Position numbers and translations under genes: made by a program. This document shows positions 1 through 64,000 of a stretch of 64,000 nucleotides of DNA, one piece after another. This DNA comes from Escherichia coli (lineage in GTDB: Bacteria > Pseudomonadota > Gammaproteobacteria > Enterobacterales > Enterobacteriaceae): NCBI RefSeq assembly GCF_017348835.2, contig NZ_CP071375.1, one strand, 5' to 3'. Every line of letters starts with the position of its first letter. Within the stretch, counting starts at the first letter, position 1. The notes under the pieces were generated by a model. It had not been told where the DNA came from. It saw only the letters and a list, made by a program, of their open reading frames with translations, and did not search any database.

Positions 1-2885
1 TCCAGCTGCACCCGCTGGTTTGTGCGGCATATAACGCCGACTTCGATGGTGACCAGATGGCTGTTCACGTACCGCTGACGCTGGAAGCCCAGCTGGAAGC
101 GCGTGCGCTGATGATGTCTACCAACAACATCCTGTCCCCGGCGAACGGCGAACCAATCATCGTTCCGTCTCAGGACGTTGTACTGGGTCTGTACTACATG
201 ACCCGTGACTGTGTTAACGCCAAAGGCGAAGGCATGGTGCTGACTGGCCCGAAAGAAGCAGAACGTCTGTATCGCTCTGGTCTGGCTTCTCTGCATGCGC
301 GCGTTAAAGTGCGTATCACCGAGTATGAAAAAGATGCTAACGGTGAATTAGTAGCGAAAACCAGCCTGAAAGACACGACCGTTGGCCGTGCCATTCTGTG
401 GATGATTGTACCGAAAGGTCTGCCTTACTCCATCGTCAACCAGGCGCTGGGTAAAAAAGCAATCTCCAAAATGCTGAACACCTGCTACCGCATTCTCGGT
501 CTGAAACCGACCGTTATTTTTGCGGACCAGATCATGTACACCGGCTTTGCATATGCAGCGCGTTCTGGTGCATCTGTTGGTATCGATGACATGGTCATCC
601 CGGAGAAGAAACACGAAATCATCTCCGAGGCAGAAGCAGAAGTTGCTGAAATTCAGGAGCAGTTCCAGTCTGGTCTGGTAACTGCGGGCGAACGCTACAA
701 CAAAGTTATCGATATCTGGGCTGCGGCGAACGATCGTGTATCCAAAGCGATGATGGATAACCTGCAAACTGAAACCGTTATTAACCGTGACGGTCAGGAA
801 GAGAAGCAGGTTTCCTTCAACAGCATCTACATGATGGCCGACTCCGGTGCGCGTGGTTCTGCGGCACAGATTCGTCAGCTTGCTGGTATGCGTGGTCTGA
901 TGGCGAAGCCGGATGGCTCCATCATCGAAACGCCAATCACCGCGAACTTCCGTGAAGGTCTGAACGTACTCCAGTACTTCATCTCCACCCACGGTGCTCG
1001 TAAAGGTCTGGCGGATACCGCACTGAAAACGGCGAACTCCGGTTACCTGACTCGTCGTCTGGTTGACGTGGCGCAGGACCTGGTGGTTACCGAAGACGAT
1101 TGTGGTACCCATGAAGGTATCATGATGACTCCGGTTATCGAGGGTGGTGACGTTAAAGAGCCGCTGCGCGATCGCGTACTGGGTCGTGTAACTGCTGAAG
1201 ACGTTCTGAAGCCGGGTACTGCTGATATCCTCGTTCCGCGCAACACGCTGCTGCACGAACAGTGGTGTGACCTGCTGGAAGAGAACTCTGTCGACGCGGT
1301 TAAAGTACGTTCTGTTGTATCTTGTGACACCGACTTTGGTGTATGTGCGCACTGCTACGGTCGTGACCTGGCGCGTGGCCACATCATCAACAAAGGTGAA
1401 GCAATCGGTGTTATCGCGGCACAGTCCATCGGTGAACCGGGTACACAGCTGACCATGCGTACGTTCCACATCGGTGGTGCGGCATCTCGTGCGGCTGCTG
1501 AATCCAGCATCCAGGTGAAAAACAAAGGTAGCATCAAGCTCAGCAACGTGAAGTCGGTTGTGAACTCCAGCGGTAAACTGGTTATCACTTCCCGTAACAC
1601 CGAACTGAAACTGATCGACGAATTCGGTCGTACCAAAGAAAGCTACAAAGTACCTTACGGTGCGGTACTGGCAAAAGGCGATGGCGAACAGGTTGCTGGC
1701 GGCGAAACCGTTGCAAACTGGGACCCGCACACCATGCCGGTTATCACCGAAGTAAGCGGTTTTGTACGCTTTACTGACATGATCGACGGCCAGACCATTA
1801 CTCGTCAGACCGACGAACTGACCGGTCTGTCTTCGCTGGTGGTTCTGGATTCCGCAGAACGTACCGCAGGTGGTAAAGATCTGCGTCCGGCACTGAAAAT
1901 CGTTGATGCTCAGGGTAACGACGTTCTGATCCCAGGTACCGATATGCCTGCGCAGTACTTCCTGCCGGGTAAAGCGATTGTTCAGCTGGAAGATGGCGTA
2001 CAGATCAGCTCTGGTGACACCCTGGCGCGTATTCCGCAGGAATCCGGCGGTACCAAGGACATCACCGGTGGTCTGCCGCGCGTTGCGGACCTGTTCGAAG
2101 CACGTCGTCCGAAAGAGCCGGCAATCCTGGCTGAAATCAGCGGTATCGTTTCCTTCGGTAAAGAAACCAAAGGTAAACGTCGTCTGGTTATCACCCCGGT
2201 AGACGGTAGCGATCCGTACGAAGAGATGATTCCGAAATGGCGTCAGCTCAACGTGTTCGAAGGTGAACGTGTAGAACGTGGTGACGTAATTTCCGACGGT
2301 CCGGAAGCGCCGCACGACATTCTGCGTCTGCGTGGTGTTCATGCTGTGACTCGTTACATCGTTAACGAAGTACAGGACGTATACCGTCTGCAGGGCGTTA
2401 AGATTAACGATAAACACATCGAAGTTATCGTTCGTCAGATGCTGCGTAAAGCTACCATCGTTAACGCGGGCAGCTCCGACTTCCTGGAAGGCGAACAGGT
2501 TGAATACTCTCGCGTCAAGATCGCAAACCGCGAACTGGAAGCGAACGGCAAAGTGGGTGCAACTTACTCCCGCGATCTGCTGGGTATCACCAAAGCGTCT
2601 CTGGCAACCGAGTCCTTCATCTCCGCGGCATCGTTCCAGGAGACCACTCGCGTGCTGACCGAAGCAGCCGTTGCGGGCAAACGCGACGAACTGCGCGGCC
2701 TGAAAGAGAACGTTATCGTGGGTCGTCTGATCCCGGCAGGTACCGGTTACGCGTACCACCAGGATCGTATGCGTCGCCGTGCTGCGGGTGAAGCTCCGGC
2801 TGCACCGCAGGTGACTGCAGAAGACGCATCTGCCAGCCTGGCAGAACTGCTGAACGCAGGTCTGGGCGGTTCTGATAACGAGTAA
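1..2885 (+). CDS. rpoC: DNA-directed RNA polymerase beta-prime subunit, C-terminal ~960 codons; 5' end lies outside the window
   Basis: Frame is open from position 3 and reads [22 protein letters not shown], containing the catalytic NADFDGD motif, then continues through the 942-aa ORF ending 2885. Confidence 0.97.
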
Positions 2886-2906
2886 TCGTTAATCCGCAAA
2901 TAACGT

Positions 2907-2933
2907 AAAAACCCGCTTCGGCGGGTTTTTTTA
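2907..2933 (+). terminator. Rho-independent terminator downstream of rpoC
   Basis: GC hairpin aaaacccgc-ttcg-gcgggt followed by a run of T. Confidence 0.85.
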
Positions 2934-3097
2934 TGGGGGGAGTTTAGGGAAAGAGCATTTGTCAGAATATTTAAGGAATTTCTGAATACTCATAATCAAT
3001 GTAGAGATGACTAATATCCTGAAACTGACTGAACTAATTGAGTCAAACTCGGCAAGGATTCGATACTATTCCTGTGTAACTTTCTTAAGGAACGAGA

Positions 3098-3627
3098 ATG
3101 AAACAGGAAGTGGAAAAGTGGCGACCTTTTGGACATCCGGATGGTGATATTCGTGATTTATCATTTCTTGATGCTCATCAGGCTGTCTACGTTCAGCATC
3201 ATGAGGGCTAGAGTATCGCTTTTGGGTTACCTACTCTCTTCACTGCTTCACAAAAGATTATGAACATCAGACGAACGAAGAAAAACAATCGTTAATGTAC
3301 CACGCGCCTAAAGAATCTCGTCCCTTCTGCCAGCACCGTTATAACTTAGCGCGCACACACTTAAAAAGAACCATTTTGGCGCTGCCAGAAAGCAATGTTA
3401 TTCATGCCGGGTATGGTAGCTATGCCGTGATTGAGGTGGACTTAGACGGAGGAGACAAGGCATTTTACTTTGTTGCGTTCAGGGCTTTCAGGGAAAAGAA
3501 AAAACTCCGTTTGCATGTAACTAGCGCTTACCCCATTTCTGAAAAACAGAAAGGTAAATCAGTGAAATTTTTCACCATTGCCTACAATTTATTGAGAAAT
3601 AAGCAGCTTCCTCAGCCCTCAAAATAA
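3098..3627 (+). pseudogene. yjaZ: yjaZ/htrC-like heat-shock protein gene disrupted by a 1-nt frameshift
   Basis: ATG 3098 with AAGGA RBS opens a frame that stops at TAG 3209-3211 after 37 codons. The frame one base over is open from 3205 to stop 3628-3630 (141 codons). Joined length ~177 aa matches the ~179 aa recalled for HtrC. The break sits at a GGG run. Confidence 0.6.
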
Positions 3628-3629
3628 CA

Positions 3630-3651
3630 AAACCCACCTTAAGGTGGGTTT
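3630..3651 (+). terminator. Hairpin downstream of yjaZ, possible terminator
   Basis: aaacccacc-ttaa-ggtgggttt inverted repeat; the T-run is short. Confidence 0.45.
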
Positions 3652-4036
3652 CGCCAGAGATAATTCTCTGGTATTCAGAACGCCATTACCGGACTTTGCC
3701 TTGACCTTGCGAGAATCGCAGGTTGCGGGATGTCTGAATTTCTTCAGTCTGCTGCATCCTGGAAGATGAGAACATGTGTTCTTATTTTCGTCTCTATCAT
3801 AGTTGAGTATTTACTCTCTTACAATCAGATCTCTTTCATTGCTCAACAGGCGATGGCTTCAGACTTTGCATTACGGAATTTTTAAGAAAGGCAGGGCGAA
3901 ACGAGGAAGAAGCTTTTCGCCCTGGACAACATTCCTGCTGACGGCACTACCATAAAAAAACACAACGCTTTCAACAACCTTGCGTTTTTCATCTTCCGTA
4001 GCGGCTCGGAATAAATTTACGTTCTTACATTCCGTC

Positions 4037-9444: not shown

Positions 9445-9580
9445 ATGAAGCAAGAGACGATCGCCGCAAAGGCGATGCGATAGCAGATTAACTCTTGTTC
9501 CCTTCGCAGGTATTAGCCTGATCAGGTTCCGCGGATCCCGAATAAACGGTCTCAGCCAGTTAAGGCACTCCGACAAGAAA
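9445..9580 (-). promoter_or_regulatory. TPP riboswitch (THI element) in the thiC leader
   Basis: Minus-strand leader contains CTGAGA followed by AACCTGATCAGGCTAATACCTGCGAAGGGAA, the conserved THI-box core; boundaries approximate. Confidence 0.7.
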
Positions 9581-9633
9581 TTAGCCCCACAAACGGGGCG
9601 TTGAATGTAAATTACGCGTTAACAGCGCAGAAC

Positions 9634-21421: not shown

Positions 21422-22963
<1,542 letters not shown>

Positions 22964-23048
22964 CCTTAAAGAAGCGTTCTTTGTAGTGCTCACACAGATT
23001 GTCTGATAGAAAGTGAAAAGCAAGGCGTCTTGCGAAGCAGACTGATAC

Positions 23049-23124
23049 GTCCCCTTCGTCTAGAGGCCCAGGACACCGCCCTTTCACGGCGGTAACAGGG
23101 GTTCGAATCCCCTAGGGGACGCCA
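23049..23124 (+). tRNA. gltV: tRNA-Glu (anticodon UUC) in the 16S-23S spacer
   Basis: GTCCCCTTCGTCTAGAGGCCCAGGACACCGCCCTTTCACGGCGGTAACAGGGGTTCGAATCCCCTAGGGGACGCCA, 76 nt with encoded CCA. Confidence 0.95.
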
Positions 23125-23308
23125 CTTGCTGGTTTGTGAGTGAAAGTCACCTGCCTTGATATCTCAAAACTCATCTTCGGGTGATGTTTGAGATATTTGC
23201 TCTTTAAAAATCTGGATCAAGCTGAAAATTGAAACACTGAACAATGAAAGTTGTTCGTGAGTCTCTCAAATTTTCGCAACTCTGAAGTGAAACATCTTCG
23301 GGTTGTGA

Positions 23309-26212
<2,904 letters not shown>

Positions 26213-26305
26213 CAACGCCGAAGGTGTTTTGGCGGATTGAGAGAAGATTTTCAGCCTGATACAGATTAGATTAACCGGCGGTAAGCGGGTTAATACGACA
26301 GAATT

Positions 26306-26425
26306 TGCCTGGCGGCAGTAGCGCGGTGGTCCCACCTGACCCCATGCCGAACTCAGAAGTGAAACGCCGTAGCGCCGATGGTAGTGTGGGGTCTCCCCAT
26401 GCGAGAGTAGGGAACTGCCAGGCAT
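26306..26425 (+). rRNA. rrfE: 5S ribosomal RNA
   Basis: TGCCTGGCGGCAGTAGCGCGGTGGTCCCACCTGACCCC...GGGAACTGCCAGGCAT, 120 nt. Confidence 0.97.
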
Positions 26426-38159: not shown

Positions 38160-38320
38160 AACGTTGCTGACTGTAGGCCGGATAAGGCATTTACGCCGCA
38201 TCCGGCAATCAGTGCACGATGCCTGATGCGACGCTTGCGCGTCTTATCATGCCTACAACCGTTGCCGAACGTAGGCTGGATAAGGCGTTTACGCCGCATC
38301 CGGCAATTCTCTGCTCCTGA
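38160..38320. repeat. REP (repetitive extragenic palindromic) elements between aceA and aceK
   Basis: Repeated GCCGGATAAGGCATTTACGCCGCATCCGGCA / GCCTGATGCGACGCTTGCGCGTCTTATCA units in alternating orientation. Confidence 0.8.
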
Positions 38321-54955: not shown

Positions 54956-55024
54956 AACAGACTCCTGATTTTAGATAATAGGGACCCGCCGTAATTTTTA
55001 TTACGATAAACATCGGGAAGATTT

Positions 55025-55972
55025 TTATTTCAGTAATAGTTCAGCTGTGCTGCTATTCGTTACCAGACAATTAATATATTTTCCACGCAGTGCACCAATA
55101 ATTCCGCTGTATTTTTCTTCACTCATGGCAATGCCAATGGAATATCGTGCCTGCTTTAATTTATTCATTTCGATAGAGAGTGTTTTTTCGCTCATATTCG
55201 TTTCAACCATTGCGCCGTGAATATCAAAAAAGCGCGAGCAAATATCGCCAGCAACCTGGCGGGCATTCAGGTCGTCACTCTCTTCACCACCATAAAACGC
55301 ATGCCAGTTAGCGCCGTCGCGAATGGCCGGTGAGCCAATTCCCACCAGGGCGACATCCAGATTATCCCAGTAGGCAGAGATGGTTTTAAAGTGCTGAGAC
55401 TGCATGATCCCATTACGAATTAAGGGGTTATCCAGCAGAGCCGGAAAATCCGCGAGATGCGATTCCCCTTTCAGCTTCGCTGCCGCGCTGTAGGTTAATG
55501 TGTTTACGTGATAGCGGCTTTCGAGTTTACCGGACGGTCCGCCAATAATTGGCACGCAGATTAACTGCCGCGATTGCCCCGCTTGCGGCAAGTTTTCAAC
55601 CAGTGCGCTCACCGCGCGACCCCAGGAAAAACCGACAATATCGCCAGGCTCCAGCAAGCGATCCAGCAGTTGCGCGCCGTGTAACCCCATCATCGCCAGT
55701 TGAGTCTCTTCATCCTCATCATTTCCCGACACCACCACAACGTCTTTCAGGCCAAACTTTTGCTTCAGTTGCTGCTCGAGCCAGAGATTTTCGTTGTAGT
55801 CATAGTTGATGGCGATGGTGACAATTCCCTGATCGCGGCCTCGTTTAAGCAAGCGGCTGATGGTGGTGCGGTAAATACCCAGTTCGCGCGCGATTTGCGC
55901 CTGCGTCATATCCTGTTCGTAATAGAGTTGGGCAATCTTCACAATCAAACGGATATCGTCACTGTTTTCCAT
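55025..55972 (-). CDS. sorC: SorC-family transcriptional regulator
   Basis: Start taken at MENSDDIRL with AGGAGG RBS (315 aa); N-terminal HTH (MTQAQIARELGIYRTTISRLL) plus sugar-binding domain. Confidence 0.8.
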   Translation of the reverse strand: MENSDDIRLIVKIAQLYYEQDMTQAQIARELGIYRTTISRLLKRGRDQGIVTIAINYDYNENLWLEQQLKQKFGLKDVVVVSGNDEDEETQLAMMGLHGAQLLDRLLEPGDIVGFSWGRAVSALVENLPQAGQSRQLICVPIIGGPSGKLESRYHVNTLTYSAAAKLKGESHLADFPALLDNPLIRNGIMQSQHFKTISAYWDNLDVALVGIGSPAIRDGANWHAFYGGEESDDLNARQVAGDICSRFFDIHGAMVETNMSEKTLSIEMNKLKQARYSIGIAMSEEKYSGIIGALRGKYINCLVTNSSTAELLLK

Positions 55973-56319
55973 TGCCGCCTCCTGGTTCTGCACATTTGTG
56001 CAAATACGCTTTCTCACCGCTTGATCTGATATAACCCCATCATGATGGCCTTTCAAAGCGATTTTTCACTCTTTGCATGGGGAGAAATAGCGCTTTCTCT
56101 TGCACATTTGTTTCTCTGCGCAGTAGTCATCAGCACAGGTGTGCAGCGATTCGTAATATGTTGATTATCCTTATTTTGCCAGGCAAATTTGCATTGTACT
56201 TCCGGAGACACTTTTGTGATAAAAGGCGTGGCAGATCACATTTAATTTCGACGTTGCCGCATAACTCTGTTTTTCCCTGCTAAGAGGTACGGTATATTCC
56301 GCGTTTTACAGGAGAATTT

Positions 56320-57192
56320 ATGCTGCCCGACTCATCAGTCCGTTTAAATAAATACATCAGCGAAAGCGGAATTTGCTCACGCCGCGAAGCGGATCGCTAT
56401 ATCGAGCAAGGCAATGTGTTCCTTAATGGCAAGCGAGCCACCATTGGCGATCAGGTGAAACCCGGCGACGTTGTGAAAGTAAACGGTCAGTTGATTGAGC
56501 CTCGGGAAGCCGAAGATTTGGTACTTATCGCCTTGAACAAGCCCGTCGGTATTGTCAGCACCACCGAAGATGGCGAGCGCGATAACATTGTCGATTTCGT
56601 TAACCACAGCAAACGCGTGTTCCCGATTGGTCGTCTGGATAAAGATTCCCAGGGGCTGATTTTCCTCACCAACCACGGTGATCTGGTGAATAAGATCCTG
56701 CGTGCTGGCAATGATCATGAAAAAGAGTATTTGGTAACGGTCGATAAACCGATTACCGATGAATTTATTCGTGGTATGGGGGCGGGAGTGCCGATCCTCG
56801 GGACGGTGACGAAAAAGTGCAAAGTCAAAAAAGAAGCACCGTTTGTCTTCCGCATTACCCTGGTGCAGGGGTTGAACCGTCAGATCCGTCGCATGTGCGA
56901 GCACTTTGGTTACGAAGTGAAAAAGCTGGAACGTACGCGCATTATGAACGTCAGCTTAAGCGGCATTCCGCTGGGTGAGTGGCGCGATTTAACTGACGAT
57001 GAGTTAATCGACCTCTTTAAGCTCATCGAAAATTCCTCTTCCGAGGCAAAACCTAAAGCGAAGGCCAAACCGAAAACAGCGGGCATCAAACGTCCAGTCG
57101 TTAAGATGGAAAAAACGGCGGAAAAAGGCGGTCGCCCGGCGTCCAACGGTAAGCGTTTTACCTCGCCGGGGCGAAAAAAGAAGGGGCGCTAA
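56320..57192 (+). CDS. rluF: 23S rRNA pseudouridine synthase F
   Basis: 290-aa ORF with S4 domain and RsuA-type catalytic core; Lys/Ala-rich tail. Confidence 0.93.
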
Positions 57193-57465
57193 TCAGCGCC
57201 TGCCGCGCGTCGACGTATTTGCTGACCAGCTAAATGACGCTTCAGGATCCGGTTTATAAGCCTGCTTTTTCTTTAACTGGCGGGCTTTTTTCGCTTCAGC
57301 CTCACGCTCGACCATTAATTTATCGATGTACTCTTTCTTAATGCTGTTGGTTTCGGAGTTGGTCAGTACGCGACCATGCGCAATCCGCGCCCGATCCAGC
57401 AGTGTTTTAAGTTCACGTTGCTCGCGTTCAGTCATCTCTTTTTGAGTAATACGGGGGAGTGCCAT
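57193..57465 (-). CDS. yjbD: DUF3811-family small protein
   Basis: 90-aa ORF; its stop codon abuts the rluF stop codon. Confidence 0.85.
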   Translation of the reverse strand: MALPRITQKEMTEREQRELKTLLDRARIAHGRVLTNSETNSIKKEYIDKLMVEREAEAKKARQLKKKQAYKPDPEASFSWSANTSTRGRR

Positions 57466-57678
57466 GATGGTGCCCTCAGTGAGCCAGAGAGTTCAGTGTA
57501 CGGGAATTCGTTTGCGAGCAGAACTGATAATATTCCTTTGTTCTCTTCTTAAATATTTATCTTTCTTGATAATTGACGATAAATACAGATACAAATTTAG
57601 CGAAAAAATCTCCCCCTACAAACAACAATGATTTATTAAATCTTTATTTTTCATGTAATTAAAATTTTTTATCACTTC

Positions 57679-57694
57679 TGGCACGCTTCTCGCA
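57679..57694 (+). promoter_or_regulatory. Candidate sigma-54-type promoter ~300 nt upstream of the SPFH gene
   Basis: TGGCACGCTTCTCGCA with GG-N10-GC spacing; motif match only. Confidence 0.3.
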
Positions 57695-57993
57695 ATAACA
57701 CTTTTGCGTTGATACTGAATTACAAAGGGGGTTAAACCCCGTCGGCACACCAGGAACGGCCAGGCTGTTTTCCGGGCGTGTTCCGTCAGCCTTTGACGCC
57801 AATTACGGGTTCGATTCCCACATTCATTCCTGAAATGAATACTGGTTGTAACTTATTAAATAAAAAATGAGGGATTGCGCAGTCTGCGGTCCCCGATAAC
57901 GTCACCGATAAAGATGCCGGGTAACAGGCAAAAGGGAATTCCCCTGTCGCTTCGTGTCTGCTTCCGCGACGGCTATTAAGCAAGGAATAGATA

Positions 57994-59121
57994 ATGATTA
58001 AAAAAATAAGCGTAAGAAAAGATCAGCTGGCATTACTCTCCAGAAACGGCGATTACTACAAAGTGCTGCATGCAGGCGAGCATATTTTACCCTGGTTAAA
58101 TACCCCGGAAGTGTTGCTGATTACGCTGGATGGTAGCGAAGTTCCCGACGTGCTTGCGGATTATTTGCGCCGCTTTCAGCCTGATTGGGTGGAGAAATAT
58201 TGCCTGGTGGCAGACTTGTCGGAGACTGAAGCCGGGGTGTTGTATATGGACGGTATTTTGTTGGAGATCCTGCCGCCATCAACGCGTCGTTTGTACTGGC
58301 GTGTAGAGGATGATTTGACGCTGGTGCGGATGAATACGCAGCAAGTCCCGGTACAAACGGAGGTGATGAATGCGGTATTACAGCCACGGCGCAAAGGAGT
58401 TGTTAAAGGCCGCGATGCGATACTGACGGTGCAGGTTCCGGCCTGGCATGTAGGCGTGCTGAAAATCGATGGTGAAACGCAGGCGCTGTTACCGCCGGGG
58501 CTGACTGCGTACTGGAAAATAAATCATCTGGTTGAAGCTGAAGTTGTCGACACCCGCTTGCAGGTACTGGAAGTCAGCGGGCAAGAAATCTTAACGAAAG
58601 ATAAGGTCAATCTGCGGATTAATCTCGCCGCTAACTGGCGCTATAGCGATGTGTTGCTGGCATTTAGTCAGCTAACGAAGCCGATTGATCATTTGTATCG
58701 GGAATTACAATTTGCCCTGCGTGAAGCGGTAGGTACGCGCACACTGGATGAACTGCTGGAAGATAAACAGGTCATTGATGACGTTGTTAGCGAGCAGGTG
58801 AAACTACGCATGAAGCCGTTCGGTATGGAGATCGCTTCGTTAGGAGTAAAAGATATCGTCCTGCCTGGCGATATGAAAAATATTCTTGCGCAACTGGTAG
58901 AGGCGGAGAAATCCGCGCAGGCCAATGTGATTCGCCGACGTGAAGAAACGGCAGCGACGCGCTCGTTACTGAACACCGCCAAAGTCATGGAGAACAATCC
59001 GGTAGCGTTGCGTTTAAAAGAGCTGGAAACGCTGGAGAGAGTGGCTGAGCGGATTGATAACATCTCTGTATTTGGCGGTCTGGATCAGGTTCTGCATGGG
59101 TTGGTTAATATCAAAGGGTGA
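57994..59121 (+). CDS. SPFH/band-7 (stomatin-like) domain protein with an unassigned ~180-aa N-terminal region
   Basis: 375-aa ORF with RBS. C-terminal half (GQEILTKDKVNLRINLAANWRY...IASLGVKDIVLPGDMKNILAQLVEAEKSAQANVIRRRE...) is stomatin/prohibitin-like. No obvious transmembrane helix. Confidence 0.7.
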   Translation: MIKKISVRKDQLALLSRNGDYYKVLHAGEHILPWLNTPEVLLITLDGSEVPDVLADYLRRFQPDWVEKYCLVADLSETEAGVLYMDGILLEILPPSTRRLYWRVEDDLTLVRMNTQQVPVQTEVMNAVLQPRRKGVVKGRDAILTVQVPAWHVGVLKIDGETQALLPPGLTAYWKINHLVEAEVVDTRLQVLEVSGQEILTKDKVNLRINLAANWRYSDVLLAFSQLTKPIDHLYRELQFALREAVGTRTLDELLEDKQVIDDVVSEQVKLRMKPFGMEIASLGVKDIVLPGDMKNILAQLVEAEKSAQANVIRRREETAATRSLLNTAKVMENNPVALRLKELETLERVAERIDNISVFGGLDQVLHGLVNIKG

Positions 59122-59126
59122 GTAAC

Positions 59127-59918
59127 ATGCCATTAAATGGAGTCAGTGCTGCGATGCGCGAAAGGGTATCGCAGCAGTTAAAAGAAATTGAACGTCGCTA
59201 TGGCGTGAAAGTGCTGTACGCCTGCGAATCGGGGAGTCGCGGCTGGGGATTTGCTTCGCCCGACAGCGATTACGATGTGCGGTTTTTGTATGTCCATCCG
59301 CTGGAATGGTATCTGCGGGTAGAGGCACCACGCGATGTTATCGAACTGCCCATCGACGACGAGTTAGATGTTTCCGGTTGGGAATGGCGCAAAGCGCTGG
59401 GATTGCTGAAAGGTGCGAATCCCACGCTAATTGAATGGCTGGATTCACCGGTGGTCTATCAGCAAGATGAAGAGACGATAACGGCGCTTAAGGCAATGGT
59501 CCCAACGTGGTTTTCTCCGTTGCGTGCGCGCTGGCATTACTATTCGATGGCGCAGAAAAACTTCCGCGGATATTTGCAGGGCGATGAAGTTCGACTGAAA
59601 AAATACTTTTACGTGCTGCGTCCGTTGCTGGCCGTGCGTTGGGTTGAAGCGGGAAAAGGCGTACCGCCAATGCGTTTTTCCGAATTGCTGGCGGGAAGTG
59701 AGTTGGATGCGGCCTTACGCGCAGAAATAGATGAATTACTGGAACGTAAACAGCGTGCGGGTGAAGCGGAATATGGCCCACGCCGTCCATTGCTACATGC
59801 GTTTATCCATGCGGAACTGGCGCGTGGGGAAATTCCGCCTGTGTTACCGGATAGTAGAGAAGGGGACGTTAAGAAACTGGATAGCTTACTGTACCAGACG
59901 GTAATGCGCCGGGCGTGA
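59127..59918 (+). CDS. Pol-beta-superfamily nucleotidyltransferase
   Basis: 263 aa from ATG 59127 (a GTG at 59118 would overlap the upstream stop by 4 nt); motif GSRGWGFASPDSDYDV fits GS-x10-DhDh. Confidence 0.7.
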   Translation: MPLNGVSAAMRERVSQQLKEIERRYGVKVLYACESGSRGWGFASPDSDYDVRFLYVHPLEWYLRVEAPRDVIELPIDDELDVSGWEWRKALGLLKGANPTLIEWLDSPVVYQQDEETITALKAMVPTWFSPLRARWHYYSMAQKNFRGYLQGDEVRLKKYFYVLRPLLAVRWVEAGKGVPPMRFSELLAGSELDAALRAEIDELLERKQRAGEAEYGPRRPLLHAFIHAELARGEIPPVLPDSREGDVKKLDSLLYQTVMRRA

Positions 59919-59933
59919 TGCCCGGCGTTATTT
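59908..59933. terminator. Bidirectional terminator-like hairpin between convergent genes
   Basis: cgccgggc-gtga-gcccggcg followed by TTATTT; spans the nucleotidyltransferase stop codon. Confidence 0.6.
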
Positions 59934-59950
59934 CAGGTCATCAGCTTTTA

Positions 59951-60880
59951 TTATTCTTGTGCACTTCCGCTGATTTCATTTTGTATATGCGTTGCAATAT
60001 CGCAATTGGTTGCCGCTTGTGAACTAAATATCATCTTCTCACGCGAATACACCGCAAACTTATCTGCCAGGTTTGAAGCAAACACCTTGCTGGCATTTTC
60101 TGCTAGCAAATCGGTAACGATATCATGGTGATTTTTATCCACTTTGCGGGCGATATTTCCCGCCTCTTTGTCCTTATTATACCCTTCGTTGGTGCTTTCC
60201 CAGCTTAATGCCGCTGAGGTGGTTTTTATCATGACTTCTGTTCGGTAGCCTGCATCTTTGAGTTTTTTTAATGTTTGTAGCGGCGTAGCGGCATTACGAA
60301 ATGTTCCTTCGACAACAATATTGAGTTTATTGGCTATGGCCCTCTCTATTGCACGTTCGACCGTTTCGCCGGAAAATTTTGCCGTATGGGTAACAAAATC
60401 GTCGCCATAAGTTTGATATATATAATTAAAATCAGGGTGTAGAAATCTGAAATCATCACCATTAATAATCATTATATTATTCTTTGTTTCCCTTTTTGCT
60501 AATTCGATTAGGGCGGATTTTCCGGCTCCTGGTTGTCCACCTAAAACAAAACCAATGGGACTCTGCTGGGATGTGACGTCATGGTTTGTCAGACGCTGCC
60601 AAATAGAATCAAAAGACGCTTTATTTTCTGAATGCGCAGTATTATTAAATTCACGCTGATACTTTTTTCTGACCTGCTGGAGGCGTAACTTTCCCTGTGT
60701 AAAATCAACAAGTTCTGCTGGAGTGGAATAAAGATTGTCGCGATAGCTGACTAATTGTGATAGCTCATCGTCTGAGTCCTGAACTTGTGAGGAAAAACAA
60801 CTGTCGACGATATTTGATAAAAACGCGATGCACTGACTGGTGCCGTTTAAAAGTGCATCTTTTTCCATTAAAGTAGCCAT
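59951..60880 (-). CDS. Zeta-toxin-family kinase with ~100-aa N-terminal extension (EzeT-like)
   Basis: 309 aa from ATG 60880 with AGGAG RBS; Walker A GGQPGAGKS ~115 residues from the N-terminus; AT-rich codon usage. Confidence 0.65.
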   Translation of the reverse strand: MATLMEKDALLNGTSQCIAFLSNIVDSCFSSQVQDSDDELSQLVSYRDNLYSTPAELVDFTQGKLRLQQVRKKYQREFNNTAHSENKASFDSIWQRLTNHDVTSQQSPIGFVLGGQPGAGKSALIELAKRETKNNIMIINGDDFRFLHPDFNYIYQTYGDDFVTHTAKFSGETVERAIERAIANKLNIVVEGTFRNAATPLQTLKKLKDAGYRTEVMIKTTSAALSWESTNEGYNKDKEAGNIARKVDKNHHDIVTDLLAENASKVFASNLADKFAVYSREKMIFSSQAATNCDIATHIQNEISGSAQE

Positions 60881-60981
60881 TAACACTCCTGTTAAATAAT
60901 ATTTTTCGGTGATTATAATACTGTTCTACAGGAGTGATTTTGCATTTCAGATATTATTTAATCTATGTTTGCAGTGAGGAT

Positions 60982-61012
60982 GGCGTATAACAATTGGTGA
61001 GCGTTATACGCC
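60982..61012. promoter_or_regulatory. 10-bp perfect inverted repeat between lysC stop and the zeta-like gene
   Basis: GGCGTATAAC-11 nt-GTTATACGCC; no T-run follows on either strand. Confidence 0.4.
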
Positions 61013-61024
61013 AGTAGGAAAATA

Positions 61025-62374
61025 TTACTCAAACAAATTACTATGCAGTTTTTGCACCACCTGCTCGGCATCTTCGCCGGGCACCAGGAAGCACAGGTTA
61101 TGGCTGGATGCGCCGTAACAAATCATGCGAATGTTGAACGGTTCCAGTACGCCGAATACCTCTTTGCCAACGCCGCAGGCTTTTGACAGGTCATTGCCAA
61201 TCAACGCGACCAGCGCCAGACCTTCTTCTACTTCCACCCGGCACAGTGCGGAAAGCTCCATCAGCAGAGATTGCGTCAGCAACGTATCGCCAGTGGAGGT
61301 TGAACCGGTGGTATCAAGGGTTAATGCCACGCTCACTTCTGACGTGGTGATTAAGTCTACCGAAATATTATGCCGCGCGAGGATGCCGAAAACTTCCGCG
61401 AGGAAGCCGCGAGAATGCAGCATATTCAGGCTGTGCAAAGTGAGCAGAGTCTGATTGCGACGAAGCGCCAGCGCGCGGAACAGCGGCGGATTTTCAGTTT
61501 TATTGCATACCAGCGTACCACCTGCGCGTGGGTCTTTGCTGGAGCCGACAAAGACCGGGATATCGCTGCGTACTGCGGGTAGCAATGTTGCCGGATGCAG
61601 TACTTTTGCACCAAAAGTTGCCATCTCTGCTGCTTCGGCAAACGCGATTTCATCAATGCGTTTTGCTGCGGAAACCACGCGTGGATCGGTGGTGTAGATG
61701 CCCGGGACGTCGGTCCAGATATCAACACGAGATGCGTGTAAAGCCTCCGCCAGCAAGGCTGCCGTATAATCGCTGCCTCCACGGCCAAGCGTCGTTGTAC
61801 GACCTTTATTTTCGCTACCGATAAATCCCTGGGTGATCACTAAACCTTCATTGAGACGTGGGAGCAGCTGCAGCGCGGCCAGTTCCGCCAGCGCGGCTAT
61901 ATCTGGCTCTGCACGACCAAATCGGTCGTTGGTACGCATCACTTTACGTACATCAAACCACTGTGCCTGAACATCGCGTTCGCGCAGGATCTCAACAAAC
62001 AGCAGGGTCGACATCAGCTCGCCGTGGCTGACCAGCTCATCTGTCAGCGCCGGAGACGTTGCCAGCGCCGCCGCTTCTGCCAGAACAGTAATGTTCTCCA
62101 GCAGACGTTCAATCTCTTCACGGATAACGTTCGGGTAACGCAGACGTTCCAGAATGGCAAACTGGATGTTGCGAATAGCGTCGAGTTTTTCGAATCGCTC
62201 GCCAGGTTCCAGCCCTTCCGCTAAAGCGACCAGCAGATTAGTGATACCAGCAGAAGCCGAGAGGACAACTAAACGCACGTTGGCATCAGAAAGCACAATA
62301 TCAGCGCTGCGGTTCATGGCGTCAAAATCAGCTACGCTGGTACCGCCAAATTTGGAGACAACAATTTCAGACAT
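61025..62374 (-). CDS. lysC: Lysine-sensitive aspartokinase III
   Basis: 449-aa ORF MSEIVVSKFGGTSVADFDAMNRSADIVL... with C-terminal ACT domains. Confidence 0.96.
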   Translation of the reverse strand: MSEIVVSKFGGTSVADFDAMNRSADIVLSDANVRLVVLSASAGITNLLVALAEGLEPGERFEKLDAIRNIQFAILERLRYPNVIREEIERLLENITVLAEAAALATSPALTDELVSHGELMSTLLFVEILRERDVQAQWFDVRKVMRTNDRFGRAEPDIAALAELAALQLLPRLNEGLVITQGFIGSENKGRTTTLGRGGSDYTAALLAEALHASRVDIWTDVPGIYTTDPRVVSAAKRIDEIAFAEAAEMATFGAKVLHPATLLPAVRSDIPVFVGSSKDPRAGGTLVCNKTENPPLFRALALRRNQTLLTLHSLNMLHSRGFLAEVFGILARHNISVDLITTSEVSVALTLDTTGSTSTGDTLLTQSLLMELSALCRVEVEEGLALVALIGNDLSKACGVGKEVFGVLEPFNIRMICYGASSHNLCFLVPGEDAEQVVQKLHSNLFE

Positions 62375-62399
62375 AACTACCTCGTGTCAGGGGATCCAT

Positions 62400-62640
62400 T
62401 TTCAGCCTTGGCACAAGGGAAGAGCGGAAGACGGGTGGGCGCAGAGCGATACTTCGCTACTATTTTCACCCAGAAGTGCTCCACCACTTGCGAAACGCCC
62501 GACTGCGAACGCTTCTGGTGACAACCCAGGGGATTCAGCCCCTGTAGCCGATGATGAACGTGGCCAGCCGTTCAATCACCTCGGCGATGCACCCCCTCAG
62601 GTGTTATCACAGGACTGGCTCCTCCAACACCGTTACTTGG
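62400..62640 (-). promoter_or_regulatory. Lysine riboswitch (LYS element) in the lysC leader
   Basis: Long structured leader within the ~525-bp divergent lysC-pgi region; assigned from the known lysC leader, boundaries approximate. Confidence 0.5.
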
Positions 62641-62844
62641 GCAACGCGCCTCTTCTGGCCTGCGCTAGCGCAGGTAGTACATTTATAAATAAAGGGTGAG
62701 CGGGGCGGTTGTCAACGACGGGGTCATGCGGATTTTTCATCCACTCCTGGCGGTCAGTAGTTCAGCTAATAAATGCTTCACTGCGCTAAGGGTTTACACT
62801 CAACATTACGCTAACGGCACTAAAACCATCACATTTTTCTGTGA

Positions 62845-64000
<1,156 letters not shown>

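Follow-up and report, generated by a model that had tools for sequence, protein, structure and literature searches.

Does a zeta-toxin-like kinase gene with no antitoxin gene beside it carry its antitoxin within the same chain, and does the copy in this Escherichia coli genome still encode a working toxin? The gene lies on the minus strand at 59951..60880 of the window (the whole 64,000-nt stretch of DNA that was analyzed). The original prediction was that it encodes a zeta-toxin-like kinase with an N-terminal extension, and that its architecture is that of EzeT, with an N-terminal domain acting as an antitoxin in cis. EzeT of E. coli was reportedly described by Rocker and Meinhart in 2015 (Mol Microbiol 97:589). 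We conclude that the gene is an allele of ezeT and describe relatives in which the two halves of the protein are encoded separately. We further propose, with a probability of roughly 0.65, that the window copy is a disarmed toxin, its kinase catalytically dead or crippled by the loss of one otherwise invariant arginine.

The window gene is an allele of ezeT

The gene encodes a protein of 309 amino acids. The ORF listing gives a minus-strand ORF at 59951..60886, which is 311 amino acids long when read from GTG, and the ATG at 60880 opens a CDS of 309 codons plus stop. A Shine-Dalgarno sequence, AGGAG (60890..60886), lies 5 nt before this ATG, and the alternative GTG start falls within that same AGGAG. 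Both observations argue that the real product is the 309-residue protein encoded at 59951..60880. RefSeq places the CDS at exactly these borders in PE164, an identical strain. At the nucleotide level, the CDS is 100% identical to its counterparts in E. coli PE164 and F2_81, both annotated as a “zeta toxin family protein,” and the protein is identical to WP_053883826.1.

The Walker A motif (P-loop), GGQPGAGKS, occupies residues 114-122 (60515..60541, minus strand), in agreement with its predicted position about 115 residues into the chain. An N-terminal extension, about 80-100 residues long, accounts for this displaced position. Six residues of the motif (G114, G115, Q116, P117, G120, and K121) are invariant across an alignment of 65 sequences.

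The absence of a small ORF upstream, also predicted, is confirmed by six-frame translation. The lysC stop lies at 61025, and the 144-nt gap that separates it from the ezeT ATG (60881..61024, minus strand) has stops in all six frames. The sole ORF of at least 30 amino acids near the gap (60958..61071, 37 amino acids) was rejected as a cryptic antitoxin, since it begins in lysC, in another frame, and crosses a hairpin past the lysC stop. This hairpin (61012..60982), just downstream of the stop, is presumably the lysC terminator. A perfect -10 element, TATAAT, lies upstream of ezeT at 60917..60912 and has no -35 element. The published ezeT promoter is likewise a -10 without a -35 (PMC4803016), a feature that reference and window alleles share. 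A consensus scan returned no full sigma-70 -35/-10 promoter upstream of ezeT, a result that agrees with the literature and is not independent evidence. Upstream of lysC, there is a lysine riboswitch at 62466-62662 on the minus strand (Rfam RF00168, 99.5 bits).

The experimentally characterized EzeT has the accession WP_000212693.1 and adjoins aspartokinase 3 (PMC10532202), and its gene sits in a “3.4-kb islet” (PMC5812544). We find that the window protein is 88% identical to WP_000212693.1 end to end, over 308 residues. In E. coli FORC_028, WP_000212693.1 is annotated at the same position, in the order yjbD, slipin, nucleotidyltransferase, zeta, and lysC. The same islet and the full-length identity indicate that the window gene is ezeT itself rather than a look-alike, which supports the EzeT-type attribution and goes beyond it. 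We are thus highly confident that it is ezeT, a single-chain toxin-antitoxin gene with the architecture and mode of action described for the reference.

The two alleles share the species, the islet between yjbD and lysC, the slipin and nucleotidyltransferase neighbors, and the two-domain architecture. They differ in length (309 amino acids in the window, 308 in the reference) and in the distribution of their substitutions, 21 of the 36 amino acid differences falling within the 83-residue antitoxin domain. The window allele also has glycine in place of an invariant arginine at position 233 (R233G), and it belongs to a rare haplotype that is deeply diverged from the reference: about 48 of the 1433 complete genomes with ezeT have an allele at least 90% identical to the window at the nucleotide level. 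The identity, architecture, and locus of the gene are already known from the published, experimentally characterized ezeT. What is mildly new is the natural substitution at the position equivalent to zeta R158, the deep division of the islet into two haplotypes, and the record of the fusion preserved in the split relatives. In a protein collection clustered at 90% identity, the reference EzeT is grouped with lysC (aspartokinase 3) sequences under a representative of 449 amino acids; this looks like an artifact, and EzeT cluster sizes are thus unreliable.

The C-terminal domain is a zeta-type kinase

EzeT matches the zeta family in both sequence and predicted fold. Residues 84-309 (59954..60631, minus strand) comprise a linker and a zeta-type UDP-GlcNAc kinase domain, and a profile search for zeta similarity returned a clear match to the Pfam family Zeta_toxin (PF06414) over residues 104-284, with E 8.9e-39. 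Together with the ORF, this match bears out the predicted kinase with an N-terminal extension at 59951-60880. Among solved structures, the best sequence relatives by phmmer are PezT (2p5t_B, E 3e-31) and the zeta toxin of pSM19035 (1gvn_B, E 1e-26). An AlphaFold2 (AF2) model was built on the 65-sequence alignment (pLDDT 90.1, pTM 0.89), and its C-terminal part aligns to 1gvn_B in Foldseek with E 5.7e-16, an rmsd of 1.5 Å over 217 columns, and a target-normalized TM of 0.76. The NCBIfam PezT model scores 124 bits, below its equivalog cut-off of 470 bits.

A different reading is that no toxin-antitoxin is involved and that the protein has a housekeeping function, as a P-loop kinase or ATPase of the ordinary kind whose N-terminus is extended by helices. 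Weak Pfam matches to two generic families of P-loop proteins, AAA_33 (E 2.7e-4) and KAP_NTPase (E 5.8e-4), would fit it. We regard this reading as extremely improbable. The zeta-family matches are specific and strong, the protein has the zeta-specific GTXR motif as well as the catalytic Asp, and the gene is accessory (1433 carriers among 5426 complete E. coli genomes). Moreover, the orthologue is an experimentally characterized toxin, and this reading is contradicted by the published experiments.

Alignment with zeta pairs K121 with K46, D142 with D67, E175 with E100, E191 with E116, T203 with T128, and R245 with R171. The GTXR substrate-binding motif is present as EGTFR (residues 191-195, with T193 and R195) and is invariant across the 65 sequences. 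The residues essential in zeta are K46, D67, E116, R158, and R171. Window EzeT has K121, D142, E191, and R245, and the equivalent of R158 is Gly233, which is the sole gap in the set. Judged by its sequence, the window EzeT belongs to the zeta/PezT family by descent, with an active-site set that is incomplete.

The same comparison sets EzeT against the classical systems, epsilon/zeta (pSM19035, S. pyogenes) and PezAT (S. pneumoniae). Common to all are the kinase fold, the Walker A motif, the catalytic Asp, GTXR, and the second Arg, and the EzeT orthologue resembles both systems in its UDP-GlcNAc kinase activity, its lytic phenotype, and its inhibition by a small helical protein or domain. Unlike epsilon/zeta and PezAT, in which the antitoxin is a separate gene, EzeT has its antitoxin fused in cis, and it is accompanied by neither an omega nor an HTH repressor. 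The window EzeT differs further in having lost the Arg158/157 of zeta/PezT.

The N-terminal domain derives from a separate antitoxin gene

We delimit an N-terminal cis-antitoxin domain at residues 1-83 (60632..60880, minus strand) from the AF2 model and from identity to free-standing 82-aa proteins. The model predicts three helices in this domain, at residues 4-27, 32-52, and 60-73, with a pLDDT of about 90. Across a set of 303 homologs, the ~83-residue domain is confined to Escherichia, Pseudocitrobacter, and a few metagenomic proteins. The closest kinase relatives that lack it (P0009-P0012) are 68-69% identical and begin just before the kinase core.

The contigs of these unfused relatives carry an 82-aa ORF immediately upstream of the toxin gene, overlapping it by 11 nt. 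The encoded protein is 56% identical to residues 1-80 of window EzeT (BLASTP E 4e-31), and the two share the N-terminus MATLMEKDALLNG, the first 13 residues being nearly invariant between fused and split forms. This identity to a free-standing protein encoded upstream of the closest unfused zeta homologs provides independent sequence evidence that the N-terminal domain is antitoxin-derived, and it supports the prediction of an antitoxin domain acting in cis.

In the unfused relatives, two overlapping genes meet at an ATGA-type junction (for the toxins P0010 and P0012, the kinase is 68% identical to that of EzeT), whereas EzeT is one ORF. At the DNA level, ezeT corresponds to the split form plus a net insertion of 11 nt at the junction, which would bring the two overlapping frames into one. 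From these sequence comparisons, we show that ezeT descends from a two-gene antitoxin/toxin operon whose reading frames were joined at the 11-nt junction. The split relatives and the junction difference thus give direct support to the operon-fusion origin proposed by the discoverers (PMC4826407).

At the unfused loci, the zeta toxin gene encodes 232-266 amino acids and the antitoxin gene 82. One pair (L009, 2763-3699) is flanked on a 122-kb scaffold by cysJ/queD-like and queE-like genes, and a second (L010) is at 823-1759. The remaining two (L011 and L012, each at 2763-3801) lie beside ParB_N, PsiA, and PcfJ genes, neighbors that suggest a plasmid-like context, possibly the leading region of a conjugative plasmid. 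The split form was seen solely in metagenome and Logan assemblies. A “distant” blastn search of the 72,556 plasmids in PLSDB did not find it and returned two E. coli records of chromosomal size with an ordinary ezeT.

We use “epsilon-like” for the N-terminal domain as an architectural description and not as demonstrated homology, because similarity searches linked it to neither Epsilon_antitox nor PezA. Pfam returned no match to Epsilon_antitox (PF08998) even at E ≤10, and phmmer found no PDB sequence match to epsilon or PezA (1gvn_A, 2p5t_A). Foldseek of the isolated domain model against the PDB retrieved only generic helical bundles (copper storage proteins and Dps, E >0.07). This search is uninformative, in part because residues 85-98, the first kinase helix, are packed into an artificial bundle. 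The three-helix architecture is compatible with epsilon/PezA and is not diagnostic of them.

The ezeT islet occurs as two deeply diverged haplotypes

The gene is part of a three-gene islet at 57575..61024. BLAST against K-12 MG1655 shows that this 3,450-bp segment stands in place of 143 bp between yjbD and lysC, and its borders agree with those of the published 3.4-kb islet. Besides ezeT, it contains, on the plus strand, a slipin (SPFH) gene at 57994..59121 (Pfam Band_7, E 7.6e-24) and a gene at 59127..59918 for an RlaP-family nucleotidyltransferase (PF10127, “RNA repair pathway”; E 1.2e-96). The slipin and nucleotidyltransferase genes form a tight pair with a gap of 5 nt. The islet was considered as a defense system and rejected: PADLOC, run on the three islet proteins, returned nothing for the slipin or the nucleotidyltransferase and only a marginal match for EzeT (E 0.0012, to a candidate model).

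The nucleotidyltransferase gene and ezeT converge across a 32-nt gap. A GC-rich hairpin at 59906-59935 (GCGCCGGGCG tga TGCCCGGCG), followed by TTATTT, is probably a terminator shared by both genes; it was read from the sequence, and the consensus scan did not flag it.

Most ezeT alleles are far from the one in the window. Nucleotide identity to the window gene is 80-90% in 1385 of the 1433 carriers and at least 99% in 43, with 5 intermediate. The divergence spans all three genes and ends sharply at the islet edges. Between the haplotypes, dS is 0.25 for the slipin, 0.41 for the nucleotidyltransferase, and 0.44 for ezeT as a whole; in the lysC flank it is 0.03. The corresponding dN/dS values are 0.05, 0.05, and 0.14, and within ezeT they are 0.19 for the N-terminal domain and 0.10 for the kinase domain. 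The low dN/dS in both halves of ezeT indicates long-term purifying selection on both domains. The two haplotypes suggest either balanced alleles of long standing or acquisition from a different lineage of Escherichia.

Elsewhere in the window, Rfam identifies ordinary E. coli features: the sroH sRNA (3629-3789), a TPP riboswitch (9482-9582), a complete rRNA operon (16S, a tRNA, 23S, and 5S; 21422-26423), and naRNA4 (38176-38253). Another strain-variable segment lies to the left of rluF. In a comparison of 55000-64000 with K-12, the stretch at about 55000-56285 did not align to pepE/yjbB; in PE164, a sugar-binding regulator, an SDR oxidoreductase, and mannose-family PTS genes are found there.

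How the fused protein is expected to work

Experiments on the reference allele give the model for how EzeT functions. Full-length EzeT is harmless. A version lacking the first 83 residues (EzeT delta-N83) lowers viability, permeabilizes cells, and leads to accumulation of UNAG-3P, with these effects confined to temperatures below 30 C; providing EzeT(1-82) in trans neutralizes it (PMC4803016). EzeT function is also covered in PMC4826407.

Carried over from this 88%-identical allele, residues ~84-309 would act as a kinase of the zeta/PezT type that phosphorylates UDP-N-acetylglucosamine, thereby blocking peptidoglycan synthesis. The helical domain made up of residues 1-83 would fold back onto the kinase and hold it inactive, and its removal would yield a protein that is lytic at or below 30 C. 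By analogy, we assume that an N-terminal helix may block the nucleotide (ATP) site in the manner of epsilon. From the sequence comparisons, this arrangement arose when a two-gene antitoxin/toxin operon became one ORF through the net 11-nt difference at the junction.

An invariant arginine has been lost from the window allele

The window copy carries glycine at a position where its relatives have arginine. Codon 233 (60182..60184, minus strand) reads GGG, and in phmmer alignments the residue aligns with R158 of zeta and R157 of PezT, within the ERY motif. All 64 aligned homologs have arginine at this position, among them the reference EzeT, the split relatives, and proteins from Neisseria and Campylobacter. 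Relative to the sister alleles (L003-L005), the change from CGG to GGG is a single C-to-G substitution at CDS nt 697 (window 60184).

R233G is a real lineage marker. A 71-nt probe centered on codon 233 has full-length matches at 100% identity in two of 5426 complete genomes, among the matches listed; these are PE164, from a pig in China, and F2_81, from a pig in Australia. In a large protein collection, the exact window protein is present on 97 contigs. We thus reject a sequencing error at this codon, since the variant is identical in two independent complete genomes and on these contigs.

Published work on zeta suggests what the substitution does. The R158A mutant, like K46A, D67A, E116A, and R171A, loses both ATPase activity and toxicity (PMC6356619), and R158 is also a residue that contacts the antitoxin (PMC6362051). 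With the invariant arginine gone and zeta R158A non-toxic, the window copy is probably disarmed, a prediction that extrapolates to R-to-G from the R-to-A mutant of a toxin that is ~29% identical. A recent CGG-to-GGG change would have replaced Arg233, which, as the equivalent of zeta R158, would contact an ATP phosphate as well as the antitoxin, and its loss would leave the kinase dead or severely crippled. The kinase domain of the window allele, taken alone, is probably non-toxic because of R233G.

It is nevertheless conceivable that the window gene is a fully functional ezeT, its G233 variant still active enough as a UDP-GlcNAc kinase to be toxic when the N-terminal domain is removed or inactivated. 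The ORF is otherwise fully intact; K121, D142, E191, T193/R195, and R245 are conserved; and exactly this variant is retained in a lineage known from two continents and is present on the 97 contigs. Furthermore, an 8- to 30-fold drop in activity leaves some zeta mutants (E100A and T128A) toxic (PMC6356619). However, we judge this reading to be unlikely. ATPase activity is not measurable in zeta R158A, which is also non-toxic, the position is arginine in every aligned homolog, and glycine both removes the whole side chain and adds backbone flexibility. The disarmed reading is the one we favor. The R233G lineage has only ~3 substitutions of its own, and relaxed selection gives no statistical signal in it.

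ezeT has been inactivated repeatedly in sister lineages

Independent inactivations of ezeT are observed in lineages related to that of the window. In the O145:H28 clade (L003, RM9872), whose gene is 99.6% identical to that of the window, a 1-nt deletion at CDS nt 612 (A in the window) disrupts the gene, which is annotated as frameshifted. An environmental Dutch isolate, 23S01245-7 (L007), has an early frameshift in ezeT, and the pigeon isolates PT62 and LP5-1 have an IS1 insertion in it. The slipin and nucleotidyltransferase pair is present in 1631 of 5426 genomes and ezeT in 1433, which leaves ~200 with the pair and without a detectable ezeT. Repeated loss of ezeT suggests weak or conditional selection for the toxin. 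The neighboring genes also vary: XJ34 (L004) has a truncated slipin gene and lacks the nucleotidyltransferase.

An alternative is that a kinase-dead EzeT has been kept for its antitoxin, acting in trans as an anti-addiction factor against split, plasmid-borne zeta relatives and so protecting the host from post-segregational killing. The N-terminal domain resembles the antitoxin of the split relatives at 56% identity, with its first 13 residues almost invariant between the two forms, and some of these relatives have plasmid-like neighbors (ParB, PsiA, and PcfJ). Published EzeT(1-82), moreover, neutralizes in trans. This idea is purely speculative, though, and we consider it improbable. Exposure to split toxins appears to be rare, given that the search of the PLSDB plasmids did not find them, and the loss of ezeT by frameshifts and IS1 in sister lineages points to neutral decay. 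R233 is also an antitoxin-contact residue, though this is relevant to cis docking only. In the disarmed reading, which we prefer, the window ezeT would be a remnant en route to decay.

Implications for chromosomal zeta toxins

At the arginine that matches zeta R158, the window allele would provide a loss of function that arose naturally, its inactivation being predicted from the zeta mutants. The unfused relatives, for their part, offer a matched pair of split and fused forms for comparing inhibition in cis and in trans. If EzeT were instead kept as an antitoxin, an E. coli lineage associated with pigs would be using a kinase-dead protein as an anti-addiction module. By extension, conflicts with split zeta toxins on mobile elements would then account for the maintenance of both ancient haplotypes of the islet, a joint scenario that we rate as equally improbable. 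R233G, together with the independent frameshift and IS1 alleles, suggests that ezeT is dispensable and decays repeatedly in some lineages. This decay is relevant to the long-running debate on whether selection favors chromosomal toxin-antitoxin systems.
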